In this document: piece by piece, positions 3,771-62,115 of the stretch
How positions within the stretch are numbered: position 1 is the first letter of the stretch
Layout: each line of letters begins with the position of its first letter
Source of the DNA: Mustelus asterias
Lineage: Eukaryota
DNA: 64,000 bases
NCBI RefSeq assembly: GCF_964213995.1
Contig: NC_135811.1
Location: 99,820,001-99,884,000 of the forward strand
Reading direction: 5' to 3'
Notes under the pieces: generated by a model
The model's input: the letters and a program-made list of their open reading frames with translations, nothing else
Database searches by the model: none
Told to the model about the DNA's origin: nothing
Program-made: the position numbers and the translations under genes

Positions 3771-4011
3771 ATGATGTGGAGATGCTGGCGTTGGACTGGG
3801 GTAAACACTGTAAGGAGTCTAACAACACCAGGTTAAAGTCCAACAGGTTTATTTCGTAGCAAATGCCACTGGCTTTCGGAGCGCTGCTCCTTCGTCAGGT
3901 GAGTGGGAGATCTCCCACTCACCTGACGAAGGAGCAACGCTCCGAAAGCTAGTGGCGTTTGCTACCAAATAAACCTGTTGGACTTTAACTTGGTGTTGTT
4001 AGACTCCTTAC
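3771..4011. mobile_element. Penelope-like element end in fold-back arrangement with two hammerhead-like motifs
   Basis: 101-bp arms 3810-3910/3911-4011 centred on GAGA|TCTC; the arm sequence matches the 3' part of the GIY-YIG-bearing fragment at 24695-25013. Confidence 0.85.
3919..3955 (+). ncRNA. Minimal type I hammerhead ribozyme motif (PLE-associated)
   Basis: tcac-CTGACGA-a-GGAGC-aac-GCTCC-GAAA-GC-TA-gtgg: intact core boxes, 5-bp stem II, palindromic AGCT stem III, 4-bp stem I. Confidence 0.75.
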
Positions 4012-4987: not shown

Positions 4988-5278
<291 letters not shown>

Positions 5279-23928: not shown

Positions 23929-24694
23929 CATCTTGGCTTGGTTATATAAAAATGACTGGACTTTAGACATTGCTGATGAGATAACCCTAGTGACTACTGC
24001 AATTGGCATCAGAGCACATCTCATCACTGAAGTCATCTTTTCTGTGTAATTTTTGACACTTCCCTCTGTCAGGAAACAGAGGTAATTTTAAGTAAATTAT
24101 ATTTATATTTGTGGGTATTAGAAATAGGGTATAGCTTGTTCTGATCAAGTGTGGCTGTAATTGCCTTTCTTTTGCCTATTCTAATGCCTCTAGGTGCAAT
24201 CTCTGGGTCAGTATCTTGAGAAGTGCTTGTCTGATCATCTGTTATAAGGAGGTGCCTGGGACAGAGGCGGCTGTCTTAAGTCACAGCTGGCTGCATTCTT
24301 GAATCTTGTGCGGTGTGTAACCTGCTCTTGTCCCCCATATTTCACTGGAGTGATACTGAAAGCAACAGACGTTGTGTTTTTATAATGATAAAAAGTCATC
24401 GATCACTCTTAAGGGATTGAGTAACCACGTTGTGGGTTAATTTACTTAGACTAGGCACATGGGAACAGCTACACAAAGGTAGAAAACTTGAAGACATCAG
24501 CAGCAGAGCATGAGAAGTGTGTCATGTGATTGAGTCTCAGTTTCAGCTGTGTGTGCGCTGTGTTCTGCTCTCGCACAAGTGAAACTGAGACTGAATGACA
24601 TGACACATTTCCCTTACTAGTGATGGCATGCTGCAATCCATTAAAGGCATATTACAACAAGAGGTCCAGCTTATGCTGCCATAAAAATGGAGAG

Positions 24695-25013
24695 TCATGA
24701 TGAGGCACGATTGTTCTCTTCCTGTGGGGGAGCACTTCAGCGGTCACGGGCATTCGGCCTCTGATCTTCGGATAAGCGTTCTCCAAGGCGGCCTTCACGA
24801 CACACGACAGTGCAGAGTCGCTGTGCAGAAACTGATAGCCAAGTTCCGCACACATGAGGACGGCCTAAACCGGGATCTTGGGTTCATGTCACACGATCGG
24901 TAACCCCCAGATATCCACTCCATCTGACGAAGGAGCAGCGCTCTGAAAGCTAATGGCATTTGCTACCAAATAAACCTATTGGACTTTAACCTGGTGTTGT
25001 TAAAACTCTTACT
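24695..25013 (+). mobile_element. 5'-truncated Penelope-like element: GIY-YIG endonuclease C-terminus plus hammerhead-bearing end
   Basis: ORF SLPVGEHFSGHGHSASDLRISVLQGG...QKLIAKFRTHEDGLNRDLGFMSH (HF..H and GLN motifs); 14-bp TSD ATAAAAATGGAGAG at 24681-24694 and 25014-25027. Confidence 0.88.
24920..24956 (+). ncRNA. Minimal type I hammerhead ribozyme motif
   Basis: ccat-CTGACGA-a-GGAGC-agc-GCTCT-GAAA-GC-TA-atgg; stem I ccat/atgg fully paired. Confidence 0.75.
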
Positions 25014-25394
25014 ATAAAAATGGAGAGACAGCACTAATGAATAGATGAATCCCAGGTGTAGCCATTCCACTATTCCCTGGAGCTGTGTTCCCATTGATTT
25101 GCAGGATTGACCTCAAGAGAGAATCCCAATCATCCCTGGCCCTGTTCTTACCAAACTTACTATTCACACATTTACCAGCTGAAATGAAGGAGTGGAAACC
25201 GTCATTTGTTTTTACATATTAGAGTTCAGCTGTAGCACTGCAAGTTCTCAAAAAAAGAATTTCTGATTATATAGAAGTTAGCTGGTGATTTTTTAAAAAG
25301 AAGCTGAATATTTGCGTATCTTGTCGTCTTGAGTTCACTGCCTGAAGGCAGACCCAACTCATATCATGACGACCTCCATCATGGGTAGGACAAG

Positions 25395-25487: not shown

Positions 25488-26104
25488 CTAAGGAGCCTGA
25501 GTTGCTGTGACAACGTACAATTTGACGTGCATGCTGTAGCCTGGAGATATGAATAGTGCTGGTTGAGAGTCTGATTCTGTTACATCACATGACTGACCAG
25601 GAATCGTTCCTGTTCTTGCCACCTGCTGTTGGCGTGTGTTGCAAGCTGCTACTCAACTCACTTCGCCACCTTATGCCCGCTCCTTCCTAGGCCACCAAGG
25701 CCTGGAGTGGGCCTTGAACCCAGAGCTTGGAGGGAGGGCAGCTACCCACAACGCCACAAGACTTCTTCATTTGTCTATTAAATCGTACAAAATTAGCAAA
25801 ATAGCCACATCGATTGTAGTCAAGTAAAACCCTTATGTAGGTGGACTGAAATAGGATCTGTACAGGAAACAATAAGCGAGAGGCTAAACCAAGAAAAAAA
25901 AGAGATTTAGTGATTCTTTGTGGAACAGTCTTGAAATACTAAATGTACTGTCAGATTTGTATTTAGTCTTTGGAAACTTCTTCAATCTGGTATGCAGCTT
26001 TGTTTAGAAGGCTACACTTATCTTACCGTGTGTTACATTTATCAGTGACTTAAAATAAGAGCTGACTCATGTCCATTTGACTTGTACACAAGTGTTAATG
26101 ATAT

Positions 26105-26270
26105 CAAAAGAGAAAATGCTGGAAAATCTCAGCAGGTCAGCAGAGGGTCATCTGGACTTGAAACGTCAGCTCTTTTCTCTCCTTACAGATGCTGCCAAAC
26201 CTGCTGAGATTTTCCAGCATTTTCTCTTTTGGTTTCAAATTCCAGCATCTGCAGTAATTTGCTTTTATCC
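26105..26270. mobile_element. Second-family PLE-like end in fold-back arrangement
   Basis: Inverted arms 26105-26137 and 26199-26231; the loop holds half a hammerhead-like motif (gggtcatctggacttGAAACGTCA). Confidence 0.65.
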
Positions 26271-30026: not shown

Positions 30027-30168
30027 GGCTTTTTCAGAAGAAGTATCCAAAAGAATATGGTGTACACATGCCACAGAGATAAGAACTGCATCATCAACAA
30101 AGTCACCCGAAATCGATGCCAGTACTGCCGGCTGCAGAAGTGCTTGGAAGTTGGCATGTCCAAGGAAT
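30027..30168 (+). CDS. rara: Retinoic acid receptor alpha, coding exon (second zinc finger)
   Basis: Acceptor tgtttttgtgcag|GGC and donor GAAT|gtaagt; 142 bp; phase 0 start matches the previous exon. Encodes [47 protein letters not shown](S). Confidence 0.96.
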
Positions 30169-30298
30169 GTAAGTCTCTGCATTACATCTGAATTGATGTG
30201 TATCACCTGAGCTTTTCTCAATTTAATATTTCATATTACGCCAGCCTGTACGTCAATGCCAAGATGGTGGAATGGACGGAACCAGCTCTACTTACAAC

Positions 30299-33090: not shown

Positions 33091-34111
33091 GTGCAAAGAT
33101 TCTTTCAGATTTCTTTTCTTACTCCTAACTTCCTCATTTCTAACTGGTGTCTTGCAGCCTTCGAACCCTTCATCATAATGAATGCTTTATTTGTAATGAC
33201 CTTTCACAAGCTTGAAAATTTCAATTGGGTCCTTCTGCCCAAAGAAAATAAGCCAAAATCTTTCAATGTCACGAATGGAATGGGTGTAGCAGGAGAACAT
33301 TTTTTTCTTAAGCAACAAAACATTTTCTATGTCAGAAGAAGGCACTGCAGCATTGTAGAAAGTCTGTGCTTTTAATTACTTGATATTCTGCAAGGATAAT
33401 GTTCGCAAATGCCTTTTGTGGTGATACCAGGGGTCCATGGAAGAAGAGCTAAAATAAGACAGGTCACCTAGGCACGGCAAGATATAAACGTGCGGCTGAT
33501 TAACTTGATGTGACATTTTGACTCAGTGTCAGAAATAATCAAGGAAACTGTCTAATGAATTCTAGGACAGCCTGCAAGAAGGCAAGGTAACCTTGCATCG
33601 CGAGCAATGTAGTCTTTGTCTGTACATGTTAGTATATGCATGTATGTTTGAATAACAGGATGAAAAAACATTACATTTTATTTGGCTACAAATCCAACAA
33701 AACCACGTTGTGATGAGATGTGGGAGTGCTCACTTTTTCTTTACACTGCTATTTGTTTCCATTTCATCTAATTTTCTTTACTCCCTGCCCTGAAGGCACA
33801 GACTCCTGCTGAATCGTTCTTTGAGTAAGAGGTCAGACAGCAAGTGTGGCAGACTATTTGATTACAGAAGGCATCAGAGTCAATTCCTCCTTCAACATCT
33901 CTCCGGCCGGGCCGGGGTCACGGACAGGAGTGGGAATCAGGCTTTCTGTTGCCTCACGCGAGGCAGTGGGGTCAATCATAGCACTCAATTTGTAGAGCAG
34001 CTCAGAACAGGAGTTAGACCGCTCCGACTTTGCGTTCTGTCAGGTTTGCACTTAGGATCGGAGTTGCAGTGTTACCCCTTTTTAAGATGTAGGATTAGCT
34101 TTAGGCTTCAT

Positions 34112-34807
34112 GTTGGGGTCCGGGTCCATAGGACTCTTCAATCGGCCTCGCAAGGAGAGGAAGTGGTTAAGAAGGCGTATGGTGTGCTGGCCTTCATCAA
34201 TCGAGGGATTGAGTTTAGGAGTCGGGAGATAATGATGCACCTTTATAAGACCCTCGTCAGACCCCACTTGGAGTACTGTGCTCAGTTCTGGTCGCCTCAT
34301 TACAGGAGGGATGTGGAAATGATTGAAAGGGTGCAGAGAAGATTTACAAGGATGTTGCCTGGATTGGTTGGCATGCCTTATGAGGATAGGCTGAGGGAGC
34401 TCGGTCTTTTCTCCTTGGAGAGAAGAAGGATGAGAGGTGACCTGATAGAGGTGTGCAAGATGTTGAGAGGTATGTCGGGTGGATTCTCGGAGGCTTTTTG
34501 CCAGTGCTGAAATGGCTGCTACGAGAGGACACAGGTTTAAGGTGCTGGGGAGTAGGTACAGAGGAGATGTCAGGGGTAAGCTTTTCACTCAGAGGGTGGT
34601 GGGTGAGTGGAATCGGCTGCCTTCAGTGGTGGTGGAGGCAAACTCGATAGGGTCTTTTAAGAGACTTCTGGGTGAGTACATTGGACTTAATAGGATTGAG
34701 GGTTATAGGTAAGCCTATATATAAGCCTAGGTAGGTCGGGACATGACCGGCGCCACTTGTGGGCCGAAGGGCCTGTTTGTGCTGTAGTTTTTCTGTGTTC
34801 TATGTTA
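34112..34807 (+). mobile_element. CR1 (HER1-like) LINE, 5'-truncated
   Basis: LYKTLVRPHLEYCAQFWSPHY...LGLFSLERRRMRGDLIEV...TRGHRFKV, then tail GGGCCGAAGGGCCTG...TTCTATG. Confidence 0.93.
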
Positions 34808-35809: not shown

Positions 35810-36312
35810 AGTGATCATTCCTCCACCATTGAGGATGTAGATGTTAGAGAAGCTACATGAGGGCCACTGCAGAGTCATACGCATGAAGGAAATAGCAAGA
35901 AGTTATTTCTGGAAATGGAAATTGAGAAGAAAGCTACCACCCGGCACCACTGTATCCATGGGAACGGCCTGAAGAGGCTTGGCAATGTGCCCATGTGGAT
36001 TTTGGAAGACCTTTCGAAGGACATATGTTCTTAGTAATGGTCAATGCTCAAGCCAAATGGCCAGAGGTTGTTGTGATGACATCTACCTTATCTGAGAAGA
36101 TAGGAGAAGTATTTAGTCACTTTATATTTTCTGAACAGCTGGTAGAAGACAACAGACCTCAATTTGTGTCTCAAGAATTTGAGAACTTGCTACAGGAAAA
36201 CGGTATTCAACACATTACTTCCACACCATATCATTCTGCTGCTAATGGGCTCACAGAAAGCTTCGTCAAAACCTTGAAAAACACTTTGAAAGCAGCCAAA
36301 GAACAAGATTGA
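35810..36312 (+). pseudogene. Gypsy integrase remnant
   Basis: LHEGHC..RMKEIARSYFW...HVDFGRPFEGHMFLVMVNAQAKWPEV...DNRPQFVSQEF...TPYHSAANGLTESFVKTLK. Confidence 0.88.
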
Positions 36313-42580: not shown

Positions 42581-42833
42581 ATGATGTGGAAATGCCGGCG
42601 TTGGACTGGGGTAAACACAGTAAGGAGTCTAACAACACCAGGTTAAAGTCCAACAGGTTTATTTGGTAGCAAACGCCACTAGCTTTTGGAGCGCTGCTCC
42701 TTCGTCAGATGGAGTGGAAATCTCTGTAGCAAGATTTCCACTCCATCTGACAAAGGAGCAACGCTCCGAAAGCTAGTGGCGTTTGCTACCAAATAAACCT
42801 GTTGGACTTTAACCTGGTGTTGTTAGACTCCTT
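42581..42833. mobile_element. Penelope-like element end in fold-back arrangement
   Basis: ~105-bp inverted arms (42619-42723/42732-42836), 8-nt spacer, 14-bp TSD ACTAGATATAGGTC at 42567-42580 and 42834-42847. Confidence 0.88.
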
Positions 42834-51332: not shown

Positions 51333-51790
51333 CAGCCATGGCTCAGCGGGGGACCCACACTCGCCTGAGTCACAAGGCTCCAGGTTCATGTTCCACTCCA
51401 GATCTTGAGCACAAAAATCAAGGCTGACACTTGATGCAATACTGAGGGAGTGTTTCCCGGTCGGAGGTCCTGTCCATCAAATGAGACATCAAACTGTAGC
51501 CCCATCTGGCTGTGTGGGTGGATGAAGAAGATTCAAAGTCACTAGTTTGAAGAGGAGCCGGGGCGTTAACCCTGGTGTTCTGGCCTTTATTCATCCCTAA
51601 GTCAACATCATAAAAATAGGTTATCTGGCCATCACCGGTTTGCTGTTTGTGGGAGCTTGCTCTGTGCAAAATTGGCTGCCACATTTCCTACATTACCAAG
51701 GTGACTACACTTAAAAATACTCCATTGGCTATAAAGCGCTTTGTGATGGATGGTGTTGTGAAGAGCGCTATATAAATATAAGTCTTTCTT
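51333..51790 (+). mobile_element. DeuSINE (SacSINE1-like), near full length
   Basis: tRNA-like head (TGGCTCAG...GGTTCATGTTCC), Deu-domain-like core (gctgtttgtgggagcttgctctgtgcaaaattggctgcc), tail gcgctatataaat...tctttctt. Confidence 0.75.
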
Positions 51791-53666
51791 TTACTTTTAC
51801 TTCTGCAGGGAAAAAAACTGGATTCTATTCACTGGACCATAAGAACGCGAGACATTTGGATTCAATTAGTGTGGACAATAATAACCTGGAGCCTTTTTTT
51901 TGGAGGGAAAGATCATTCTAAATACAGTATAAATAGATTTTTGAAGAACAGGCATAGGAGATACTGCAGTTTGTACAGACACATTGTTGAATGTAGCCTC
52001 TGGATGGGTTGGATTTTAGCTATGAACACTATTGCTTCATAATTATTGACCTGGCATGGCAGGCCAGGTAGCTATAACAGAAAATAAAGATGCTGCAGTA
52101 GTTGACTGCCAATTTACACAGCCCTGTCACTCCCTCACACATTTCCTTGTTCTGACCTGTTTTATTTTCAATGCAAGATAATTTTGTTACCTCAGCTGAT
52201 TTGAATGAAACCGTAACGCATATGGAGATGGTCACCATGGTTTCTGTGTCTTTATTTAATTGTCTATGGAAGATTTTTTTCTTTACAGTGCTGCCTGGAA
52301 TTGTTCCTGTTGCAGTGGTTTGTGCCCCCAAGAAACATCATTTTTTTTTGTTCCTTGGATAGGTTTAACTGATGCCGTTAACAAGCTGCCTCTGGTCGGT
52401 GTGCTTGGTCAAACTGGGTTTGCTGCCTTGATGGCAAAGGAAATGCATAAGTGAGCCACAGCAATGAGGAGAACTCAGATTCAATTGTTTAACCTACTTT
52501 GAGTTAGTGTCTCGCTACCCAAACAGCAGTTGGGGGTGCCTCAATTCCTATTGGCACCCTAGGCAAAGGGGTAGTTCCTGATTGCTACACTGCAATCCTG
52601 TCTTACTAGTGAAAGTTGAACAAGGACAAGACTGGATTTGACTGTAATACCCTCCACGAATCAATAGCCTTGCTCAAGCTCATTTGTTGACACAAAAGTG
52701 TGGGCAAGGTGCAAGAAGACTGCACATTTGTCACTAAAAAAAAAAGCAAGAGTGAGGTGGGGAGAAATCAATGCAGCACCAAAAACTAGCATGAAATGGG
52801 CATTGTACCTGGACTTGTGGTCAGTGTTTCATTGAATGGGCTTGCAGTATGTTGAGCTGCGCTAGTTGTAAGTAACAAATGTTACGTCATTTAAGTGAGG
52901 ATGTTATGTCTAATTGAACATCAGTGGTTTCAAATGCAACATACTTTAATAACCTGTCAGCACTCGGATTAAATGAAAGTGTCATTTTAGTCTTGTTATG
53001 TGTTTTTTATTATTGGTTAGTATTTGCAATTGCTGACATAAATATTTCTAATTTTAGGTGTAATTACTGATTGTTATTGCCTACTCCATTAAGCATTAGT
53101 GACCTTCCAGCCTTCATAGAATTGTAATTTGAGTTTTGTTGCATTTCAGCACTTGGGAGGTAATTGCCCTTGAAAAAATGTTTGCTTTCCCAGTTACCAC
53201 TTAAGCCCGTATGTTTCTTTCACTACTCCCTGCCCTCCAATCTTTGACTTTTATTTCCTGAAAGACTCTTTCTTGACTCTTGCTGGGGTACAGAACTCCG
53301 ACTGCCTTGCTCACACTGCTGAGGCTGGAGTAGTGAGTCTTGCAGCTGTTTAGCCATGGGGATCATTGCAGTCGAGTCTGGTCCTTACGGGGACATTCAC
53401 AAATGCACACTTTGTAGCAGGACTCCAATATGACAAAAATAATTTTTCACCTCCTAGGGTGCGGTGAGAACATTTATAGTACCTCTGTTGCTTTCACATC
53501 GTCTTTGTCGACCTTAAATCAACTCAGCCGTCAAAGACAGAGGATAGAATAATATCGTGGGGGAGGAAGGGTGGTGGCTGCTAGATGGCAAGCCAACCCC
53601 CACCCTGAAAACCATAATTCCCCACTCCTCATTTGACAGTAACAGGATTCATTTCCTTTTAAGAAT

Positions 53667-55125
53667 TGAGTCTCTTTGTCTCTTCACTGGACACAGGTGA
53701 GGTCCCAGAGGATTGGAGGATAGCAAATGTGGTCCCGTTATTTAAGAAGGGTAGCAAGGATAACCCGGGTAATTATAGGCCGGTGAGCTTGACGTCCATG
53801 GTAGGGAAGTTGTTGGAGAAGATTCTTAGAGATAGCATATATGCGCATTTAGAACCGAATAATCTCATTAGCGATAGACAGCATGGTTTTGTACTAGGGA
53901 GGTCATGCCTCACAAATTTGGTTGAGTTTTTTGAGGAGGTGACAAAAACGATTGATGAGGGAAGGGCCGTGGATGTCGTCTATATGGATTTTAGTAAAGC
54001 GTTTGATAAGGTCCCTCATGGCAGGCTGGTGCAAATGGTTAAATCTCACGGGATCAAAGGTGAGCTAGCTAGATGGGTGGAGAACGGGCTTAGCCATAGA
54101 AGACAGAGGGTAGCAGTGGAGGGGTCTTTTTCCGGTTGGAGGTCTGTGACTAGTGGTGTTCCGCAGGGCTCTGTACTGGGACCTCTGCTGTTTGTGATAT
54201 ATATAAATGATTTGGAGGAAGATGTAACTGGTCTGATCAGTCAGTTTGCGGACGACACGAAGATTGCTGGAGTTGCGGATAGTGATGAACATTGTCAGAG
54301 AATACAGCAGGATATAGATAGGTTGGAACATTGGAGGCAGAGAAATGGCAGATGGAATTTAATCCAGATAAATGTGAAATGATGCATTTCGGTAGATCTA
54401 ATGTAAGGGGGAGCTATACAATAAATGGCAGAACCATCAGGAGTATAGACACACAGAGGCACCTGGGTGTACAAGTCCACAGTTCCTTAAAGGTGGCAGC
54501 ACAGGTGGAGAGGGTGGTGAAGAAGGCATATGGCATGTTTGCCTTTATTGGACGGGGCATAGAATATAAAAGTTGGCATATGATGTTGCAGCTGTATAGA
54601 ACAATGGTTAGGCCACATTTGAAATACTGCGTCCAGTTCTGGTCGCCACACTACCAGAAGGACATGGAGGCTTTGGAGAGAGTACAGAGAAGGTTTACCA
54701 GGATGTTGCCTGGTATGGAGGGTCTTAGCTATGAGGAGAGATTGGGTAAACTGGGGTTGTTCTCCCTGGAAAGACGGAGGATGAGGGGCGACCTAATAGA
54801 GGTGTATAAAATTATGAAGGGCATAGATAGAGTGAACAGTGGGAAGCTTTTTCCCAGGTCGGAGGTGACGAACACAAGGGGTCACGGGTTCAAGGTGAGG
54901 GGGGGCAAGGTTCAACACAGATGTCAGGGGGACGTATTTTACACAGAGGGTGGTGGGGGCCTGGAATGCACTGCCAAGCAAGGTGATTGCGGCGGACATG
55001 CTATCTAGATAATCACATGAACAGACCGGGAATAGAAGGATACAAAAGAATGGTCTAGTGGGCACATGAGCGGCGCAGGCTTGGAGGGCCGAAGGGCCTG
55101 TTCCTGTGCTGTATTGTTCTTTGTT
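53667..55125 (+). mobile_element. CR1 LINE, 5'-truncated, with RT domain
   Basis: VPEDWRIANVVPLFKKG..NYRPVSLTS...QHGF..GRSCLTNL...DFSKAFDKVPH...GVPQGSVLGPLLF.IYINDL...FADDTK; frameshifts near 54335 and 54905. Confidence 0.95.
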
Positions 55126-55849: not shown

Positions 55850-56345
55850 AGGCAGCATGGTGGCAAAATGGTTAGCACTGCTATCTCACAGCAAGAAGTT
55901 TAACAACACCAGGTTAAAGTCCAACAGGTTTATTTGGTAGCAAAAGTGTGGCTTTTGCTACCAAATAAACCTGTTGGACTTTAACCTGGTGTTGTTAAAC
56001 TTCTTACTGTATTTACCCCAGTCCAACGCCGGCATCTCCACATCATCTCACAGCGCCAGGGACCCAGGTTCAATTCTGGCCTCGGGTGACTGTCTGTGTG
56101 GAGTTTACACGTTCTCCCCGTGTCTGCGTGGGTTTCCTCCGGGTGCTCCAGTTTCCTGCCACAGTCCAAAAATATGCATGTTAGGTGGATTGGCCATGCT
56201 AAATTGCCCCTTAGTGTCAGGGGGGCCAGCAAGGTAAATACATGGGGTTATGGGGATAGGGCCTGGGTGGGATTGTTGTCAGTGCAGGCTCGATGGGCCG
56301 AATGGCCTCCTTCTGCACTGGAGGGATTCTGTGGATACTACGATT
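55850..56345 (+). mobile_element. V-SINE, tail A, split by a PLE hairpin
   Basis: Head interrupted after ATCTCACAGC and resumes at 56045. Confidence 0.88.
55893..56044. mobile_element. Penelope-like end, short fold-back lacking the hammerhead
   Basis: Perfect 54-bp arms 55893-55946/55952-56005; TSD ATCTCACAGC at 55883-55892 and 56045-56054. Confidence 0.88.
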
Positions 56346-60799: not shown

Positions 60800-62115
60800 T
60801 GTTCCAGAACTAACTGAGCCCACAGCCAAGTTGTTCAGGTACAGCTACAACACTGGCATCTACCCAGCAATTTGGGAAACTGCCCAGTTATGTTGTCCAC
60901 AAAAAGCAGGATAATCCAATCCGGCATGGCACTCGCACAGCAATAACCTGCTCATTGATACTCGGCTTGAGTTCTGCAAGAACTCAACACCTGGACACAG
61001 CCTTAGTCCAAATATAGACAAAAGAGCTAAACACCAGAGATGAGGCAAAAATGAAAATAAAGGTGGCACTTGACTTGAGTATGGCATCAAGGAACCCTAG
61101 TAAAACTGGAGTCAATGGGAATCAGGATGAAAACTCTCCACTGGTTGGAGTTATACCTAGCACAAAGGAAGATGGTTGTGGTGGTTGGAGGTCAATCTTC
61201 TTAGTTCCAGGAATCACTGCAGGAGTTCCTTGGGGTAGTATCCTAGGCCCAACCATCTTCAGCTGCTTCATCAATGACTTTCCCTCCATCATAAGGTCAG
61301 AAGTGGGGATATTTTCTGTTGGTGGCACAATGTTTAACGCCATTCATGGCTCCTCAGAGTCTGAAACAGTCCATGTCCAAATGCATTCAGATCTGGACAA
61401 TATTCCAGTTTGGGTTGATAAATGGCAAGTAATATTTGTGCCACACAAGCACCAAGCAATTACCATCTCCAACAAGAGAGAATCCAACTACTATCAACAT
61501 CCTGGGGGTTAGCATTGGCCAACAGCTGAATTGCACCAGCCATATAAATACTGTGGCTATTAGAGCAGGTCAGCGGCTGGGAATCCTGTGGAGATTTACT
61601 CACTTCCTGACTGTCCAAGGACTACCCACCATCCACAAGGCACAAATCAGGAGTGTGATGGAATACTTGCCACTTGCCTGGATAAGTACAGCTCCAGCAA
61701 CACTCAAGAAGCTCAACATCATCCACGCCAAATCAGCCCAATTGATTGGCACCCCAACCACCACCTTTAACATCAACTCCCCCTACCACCAACGCATAAT
61801 GGCAGCAGAGTGTACCATCTATAAAATGCATTGCAGCAACTCATTGAGCCTAATTCAACAGCACCTTCCAAACTCATGACCCCTACCATCTAGAAGGACA
61901 AGGGCAGTAGATTCATGGAACAGCACCACCTGCAAGTTCTTCTCCAAGCCCCTCATCATCCTGACTGACAGTTGCTGGTCAAAATCTTGGAACTCCCTCC
62001 TTAATAGCACTGTGGGTGTTCCTACACCACATGGACTGAAGTGGCAATTCATCACCACCACCTCGGGGACAATTAGAGATGAACAATAAAATTGCTTCCT
62101 GTGAAATAATTTTTT
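60800..62115 (+). mobile_element. Degenerate LINE (CR1/L2-group) RT region and 3' end
   Basis: ITAGVPWGSILGPTIFSCFINDFP...LDNIPVWVDKWQVIF...AGQRLGIL...KAQIRSVMEY.PLAW, with deletions and frameshifts. Confidence 0.85.

Follow-up and report, generated by a model that had tools for sequence, protein, structure and literature searches.

Background

[quoted passage not shown] In the sections of PMC4209133 cited here, a single min-HHR is reported not to cleave, and even engineered dimers are slow; the same sections place the end of the D. virilis Penelope intron at helix I. The PLE hammerhead of the anole cleaved only with its protein, and RNA-seq ends at the cut were not found (PMC11167929). Natural hammerheads may carry a U10.1-U11.1 mismatch, and hammerhead rules allow N7 and H17 to vary as they do in the family described below (excerpts of PMC3088659). 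As for the elements themselves, the marks of the Neptune/Nematis type, a linker CX2-5CxxC and CCHH, are defined in an excerpt of PMC8557442, and the PLE insertion structure, which includes an inverted arm, is described in one of PMC3846280.

Results

Position and structure of the insert

The window, i.e. the whole stretch of 64 kb that was analysed, contains RAR zinc-finger exons on the + strand at about 5114-5263 and 30027-30170. The residues of exon 1 fit alpha/beta and those of exon 2 fit alpha/gamma, so that jointly they point to alpha. The insert lies between them, also on +, and is thus sense to rara, as the earlier note had it. The relevant features are:

5264-30026, +: host intron of about 24.8 kb in an alpha-type RAR gene, flanked by its two zinc-finger exons (limits estimated from coding matches)
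24681-24694, no strand: left target-site duplication (TSD), 14 bp, ATAAAAATGGAGAG, exact copy of 25014-25027
24693/24695-24702, -: remnant of an inverted arm, 8 nt long or 10 nt if the 2-nt TSD overlap is counted, matching full-length copy L140
24703-24903, +: ORF 3' end of the element, covering the last 66 codons of a GIY-YIG endonuclease (translation, sibling comparison)
24904-24910, +: private pLTR deletion junction, 2-nt CA microhomology (comparison with siblings)
24920-24956, +: minimal type I hammerhead (sequence, column counts; numbering per the cited part of PMC4209133)
24920-24923/24953-24956, +: stem I, 4 Watson-Crick pairs
24924-24930, +: core, followed by an extra A at 24931
24932-24936/24940-24944, +: stem II, with G10.1-U11.1
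24945-24947, +: GAA, followed by palindromic AGCU (24948-24951) and H17 = A (24952)
24952/24953, +: predicted cut, by hammerhead numbering
24957-25013, +: pLTR 3' end, terminating at the tail-less end site (sequence, sibling ends)
25014-25027, no strand: right TSD, 14 bp, exact, matching 24681-24694

The insert is very probably a Neptune-like, endonuclease-bearing Penelope copy, 5'-truncated and with an internal deletion, whose hammerhead is damaged and likely inert. The two duplications, which enclose endonuclease fragment and hammerhead as had been claimed, would match exactly by chance with a probability of about 6e-6. The inverted arm at 24693-24702 is the reverse complement of the element tail end and ORF start, as judged against L140; this inverted tail stub at the start, together with the tail-less pLTR end at 25013, gives the usual PLE insertion structure with a vestigial arm. 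There is only a stub of 8-10 nt and no long inverted arm; the earlier note had described the copy as not hidden in a hairpin. Insertion would have proceeded by target-primed reverse transcription that began at the pLTR end on one strand and, on the opposite one, at the tail end; such a double start would account for the inverted stub of 8-10 nt as well as the 14-bp duplication, and the copy would have decayed neutrally since.

The translation of 24703-24903 reads ...EHFSGHGH...GLNRDLGFMSHDR*, with the stop codon at 24901-24903. The frame keeps GLN along with the two CCHH histidines; at 24824 the family Glu (AEQ) is replaced by Val, and start codon, RT and GIY/YIG motifs are absent. The fragment alone (67 aa) matched no Pfam family. 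Its sequence is 88% identical to the last part of an open frame of 645 aa in the sibling copy L034, where RVT_1 and GIY-YIG PF01541 (23.2 bits; cut-off 22.6) both score above cut-off; both the GIY-YIG-like C-terminus (HF..H, GLN) read from the sequence in the earlier note and its link to a Penelope-like element are borne out by this comparison.

The element family

In the siblings a single frame joins RT, a linker CX4CX2C and GIY-YIG, and the translations carry CX4CX2C, CRKGC and HFSGHGH, in agreement with the linker CX2-5CxxC and with CCHH. The family also shows the pLTR, one-sided tail, inverted 5' arm and TSD of EN+ PLEs, the order in full-length copies being pLTR, tail (about 40 nt), ATG. 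By its linker and CCHH marks, rather than by RT phylogeny, the element would be classed with the Neptune/Nematis type, and is here called Neptune-like.

A genome search with the endonuclease fragment yielded at least 2,332 candidate matches, 40 of them scored, and the named proteins closest to the element are predicted shark proteins. A total of 43 hammerheads was parsed in 80 evenly spaced 10-kb stretches, corresponding to about 198,000 genome-wide (Poisson 143,000-267,000), a low estimate because identical young copies were merged. Among the openly accessible papers covered on Penelope, shark genomes and hammerheads, none concerned this family, as judged by titles and abstracts. Predicted isoforms of shark host genes (septin 5a, XRCC5, a cytochrome P450, follistatin-related 5) include the endonuclease sequence, either as exonised copies or as annotation artefacts.

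A private deletion between stop codon and hammerhead

The hammerhead had been placed 20 bp after the stop codon, and its core, CUGACGA, does begin at 24924, 20 nt past the codon at 24901-24903. This spacing is the result of a deletion of about 195 nt (193-196 nt) with CA microhomology. The corresponding distance is 207-216 nt in 25 of 29 siblings, the other four giving no parse, and the junction has one exact match in the whole genome (3.68 Gb); the 20-nt spacing is therefore private to the rara-intron copy. The single match rules out that the deleted form is an amplified non-autonomous subfamily. A spliced intron is also ruled out, since on neither strand does any register of the deletion give GT-AG ends. 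The sibling pLTRs (e.g. L013:1700-1910) do contain an intron-like stretch, with GTAAC resembling a splice donor at the stop codon and, just 5' of stem I, a tract rich in pyrimidines that leads to CAG; no spliced form of it was found among the 29 siblings.

The hammerhead of the rara-intron copy

All 13 positions of the min-HHR core, C3 U4 G5 A6 N7 G8 A9 / G12 A13 A14 / A15.1-U16.1 / H17, are intact, and both the extra nucleotide between 9 and 10.1 and the palindromic 15.2-16.2 are present. The min-HHR pair G10.1-C11.1 is missing: C11.1>U at 24944, a C>T in a CpG, turns it into G-U. The canonical features of a monomer-active hammerhead are also absent, as there is no loop 3 and no hammerhead family among the 12 matches at E<=1 of an Rfam scan of the 64-kb window.

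In the predicted fold, C11.1>U lets UCUG pair with an upstream CAGA, and the MFE structure of the copy lacks both stems, differing in this from sibling L059. With flanks of 15, 30 and 60 nt, helix II has probabilities of 0.21, 0.15 and 0.03, against sibling medians of 0.87, 0.68 and 0.11, the last figure indicating that with 60-nt flanks the siblings fold poorly too; 5-14 of 45 siblings are at or below the rara-intron copy. G10.1-U11.1 nevertheless remains a pair, which weighs against the predicted inertness.

Of the 105 pLTR sites of the copy that were compared with the family majority, 2 differ, and of its 207 coding sites 7 do, values similar to those of its siblings. In 26 siblings, changes at non-CpG core sites (3/234) compared with other sites (40/2314) reveal no protection after insertion. 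From these counts we infer that the rara-intron copy has decayed neutrally since it was inserted.

The earlier note had singled out this copy as the best candidate for an active intronic ribozyme. Such a ribozyme would cut rara pre-mRNA either as a trans-dimer with other family transcripts or aided by the element protein. It is sense to the gene, its core and the four pairs of stem I are intact, it has no long inverted arm, and the AGCU palindrome is common to nearly all copies, so that partners in trans could exist. The monomer, however, lacks helix III, and the 24.8-kb intron holds no other hammerhead of this Penelope family; the nearest same-strand copies, 21 kb and 18 kb away, are both in fold-backs, and one has G8>A. 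The G10.1-U11.1 pair, the predicted misfolding, the neutral divergence and the slow cutting of engineered dimers (PMC4209133, in part) also speak against activity, which we regard as extremely unlikely. Nor is its rank as best candidate supported, the copy being a lone dimer-type motif that fails the intact-core pattern matched by 23,550 copies of its stem I class. Having no partner in the intron and a weakened stem II, the lone hammerhead would not be expected to cleave rara pre-mRNA appreciably.

Conservation and covariation across the family

Column counts were made on 121 of 127 parsed copies, after dropping five that were mis-parsed and one duplicate; because copies with more than 3 substitutions failed the core parse, core conservation is biased upward. 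The extra A between 9 and 10.1 is present in 121/121 copies, the palindromic 15.2-16.2 has G in 117/121 and C in 117/121, and G10.1-C11.1 is kept in 104/121, so that this min-HHR pair is present at the level of the family. The positions of C11.1 and G12 are altered in 27 of the 121 copies (15 and 12, respectively). N7 is C in 62, A in 32 and T in 27.

When 50 distinct rows were aligned, 90.7% of the cells were paired, against 28-58% in slid controls, and four of nine pairs changed on both sides. In stem II, pair-keeping changes were A-U/G-U/G-C at 10.3:11.3 and G-C/A-U at 10.4:11.4. The hammerhead fold is thus kept in the family, with pair-keeping changes in both stems. The covariation itself comes from few events, about three double changes in all, of which stem II accounts for two.

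An alternative explanation is that even source elements experience no structural selection on the hammerhead-like motif, its stem changes being a few subfamily substitutions that hitch-hiked. The observed number of double-changing pairs was reached in 28 of 500 shuffles, and relatedness inflates the other measures; moreover, the U-A state of stem I described below arose once, and in raw counts U-G is no commoner than C-A. The distribution of the differences argues against this explanation, as those between subfamilies fall on N7, on H17 (A in 59, T in 52 and C in 10 of the 121 copies, never G), on loop II and on pair-keeping changes in both stems, and no expanded subfamily with a core-adjacent mismatch was seen. 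We consider hitch-hiking very unlikely. Selection on the source elements, not on the rara-intron locus, would have kept the pairing of stems I and II, a reading for which these comparisons offer modest evidence.

Stem I pair 2.1:1.1 in the genome

Stem I reads ccat/atgg in the rara-intron copy (24920/24953), tcac/gtgg at 3919 and ccat/gtgg at 42743, exactly as reported before. It had been proposed that pairing kept through C-G, U-G and U-A supports a selected structure, to be checked by covariation among genome-wide copies. Exact-pattern counts in the genome are 23,550 for U-A, 15,665 for C-G, 1,765 for U-G and 1,837 for C-A at 2.1:1.1. The association between the two positions is strong, and covariation holds genome-wide; on the other hand, the U-A state forms one starred clade in a tree built from sequence outside the hammerhead (75 rows; 46 of 121 were excluded from this first tree, their upstream sequence being too short). 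One clade means one evolutionary event, and covariation due to a change in one lineage would reflect selection on source elements rather than on the locus. The proposal stands, accordingly, for the covariation, and has to be reduced as to the number of independent changes, U-G being probably a recombinant.

The earlier note had also warned that CpG/TpG-type transitions could mimic covariation. For the U-A change this is ruled out: C2.1 precedes a C and G1.1 follows an A, which places the change outside CpG context, and CpG decay gives C-A mismatches, as seen in the C-A rows. C17 was counted by eye in 69 of the first 100 C-A rows. Inverted two-arm pairs, also counted by eye in the first 100 rows of each class, were 8 for U-G and 0 for C-A (p=0.002), 14 for U-A and 3 for the older C-G class. 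Where C-A loci are two-armed, the sister arm is Watson-Crick in 10 of 11, and C-A is found in both arms in one. The C-A copies are thus mostly post-insertion mutants.

One haplotype is common to 15 of 20 fetched U-G loci (4 of the 20 had been picked as known pairs), and these sequence comparisons mark U-G as a true small subfamily, transmitted by source elements. The 5' half of the U-G copies shows a derived U-A haplotype (6 rows), while in their 3' half they agree with the C-G subfamily of the copy at 3919; U-G is therefore probably a recombinant. For the same reason, and because U-G nests within the U clade of a weakly resolved tree, its role as a historical intermediate is unsupported.

A more speculative step, which we think unlikely, is that the U-G subfamily joins a U-A 5' pLTR half to a C-G 3' half by a crossover within the hammerhead, and that this pair-keeping form is the only mosaic to have expanded, C-A mosaics being sporadic. 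It may then record cleavage and re-ligation in vivo of mixed tandem transcripts, as in the circular-RNA model for Penelope replication, and be readable across about 2e5 copies.

Mosaic pLTRs, with 5' and 3' halves from different subfamilies, were observed in L022, L258, L261 and L249; some mosaic pLTRs have the stem I C-A mismatch, L258 in both arms.

Copy starts near the predicted cut

Apparent 5' starts in the A17 subfamily, which includes the rara-intron copy, number 109 at -1, 100 at +1, 266 at +2 and 34 at +3. About two thirds of the first 100 rows at +2 are cross-matches (46) or fold-back microhomology (21), and among 30 loci inspected at +1, four are one-base deletions in intact hammerheads and three are one tandem event. 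The A17 starts form a plateau and show no spike at the cut site, a point in favour of stems free of structural selection. With the mixed-subfamily pattern, starts of the GTGTGG subfamily (first 100 of 1,689 matches, by eye) were 13 at the cut, 7 at -1, 17 at -2 and 4 at +2; they cluster from -2 to +1, with 37 rows against the 4 at +2, and are compatible with a preference near the cut that is blurred by junction microhomology.

The RNA of the source elements would form a dimer by way of the AGCU palindrome, possibly aided by the element protein, and be cut after position 17.

A fold-back pLTR stub that carries the tail lies within a SINE-like repeat at 55890-56046; its direct arm starts at 55946, where a cut is predicted for the GTGTGG subfamily, and overlaps the inverted arm by 1 nt.

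Other features of the window

Out of five hammerheads in the window, only that at 3923 (+), within a fold-back, combines an intact core with G10.1-C11.1. The copy at 42747 (+) (42666-42789) has a broken core, G8>A, with G12>A in its mirror arm, and the arm at 3898 (-) (3856-3965) has U16.1>C. An inverted repeat of about 140 nt at 26099-26237, unrelated to the Penelope family, gives sub-threshold miRNA matches; the Rfam miRNA matches in the window were rejected as fold-back artefacts. A weak match to the CPEB3 ribozyme at 51523-51598 (-) (23.7 bits, gathering 35, E 0.068) is probably due to chance. Many copies of a SINE-like family are present, and the open frames 33794-34507, 53663-55005, 35926-36309 and 61018-61876 are presumably LINE reverse-transcriptase/integrase fragments.

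Discussion

The locus is one decayed copy among very many, and by itself of little weight. Were the lone copy to cleave rara pre-mRNA, this would amount to a transposon-derived control on retinoic acid signalling; the evidence is against it. The family is of wider use, as a large natural data set on whether, and to what end, the hammerheads of Penelope elements cut in vivo. Genome-wide pair counts, and the transmission of U-G set against the sporadic C-A, provide modest evidence that source elements are selected for the fold.

Non-LTR retrozymes (bioRxiv 10.64898/2026.07.22.740005, cited in part) share with this copy a non-coding nature and a type I hammerhead related to those of PLE pLTRs. 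They are tandem arrays with at least two hammerheads, whereas here a single copy is flanked by TSDs; one copy at the locus, and a deleted form whose junction occurs once in the genome, rule out this identity.

The Poseidon element PAc of the green anole (Frangieh et al. 2024, PMC11167929) has, like the present family, two fixed end sites parted by the tail and a pLTR hammerhead. Its ORF begins at hammerhead stem II; the ATG of the present family, by contrast, stands downstream of the hammerhead, after the tail. Penelope/Poseidon elements also lack, in the cited part of PMC8557442, the linker zinc finger that is present here.

The comparison also covers the C-terminal EN+ PLEs of the Neptune/Nematis type, as far as the cited parts of Craig et al. 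(2021, PMC8557442) and Arkhipova et al. (2013, PMC3846280) describe them. Shared are the single frame with RT and GIY-YIG, the linker CX2-5CxxC, CCHH, the pLTR, the one-sided tail of 30-40 bp, the inverted 5'-truncated arm and internal microhomology deletions. The TSD of 14 bp is similar to the 8-10 bp of those elements; unlike theirs, the inverted arm is only 8-10 nt.

With the min-HHRs of metazoan PLE pLTRs, in the sections of Cervera and De la Pena (2014, PMC4209133) cited here, the family shares type I topology, conserved core, extra nucleotide 9/10.1, palindromic 15.2-16.2, short helix I, pLTR position, mostly solitary dispersed copies and compensatory subfamily changes. The AGCU palindrome stands where helix III would be and helix I has 4 bp, as in the min-HHR type. 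Helix II has 5 bp, against 7-8 in the Schistosoma families, and the rara-intron copy differs from that description in its G10.1-U11.1. The estimate of 2e5 copies is far above the 4,000 given for coelacanth and the 9,000 given for Xenopus, figures obtained by different methods. Overall, the copy is a decayed stub, and both the retroelement and the ribozyme motif that it carries are of known kinds.
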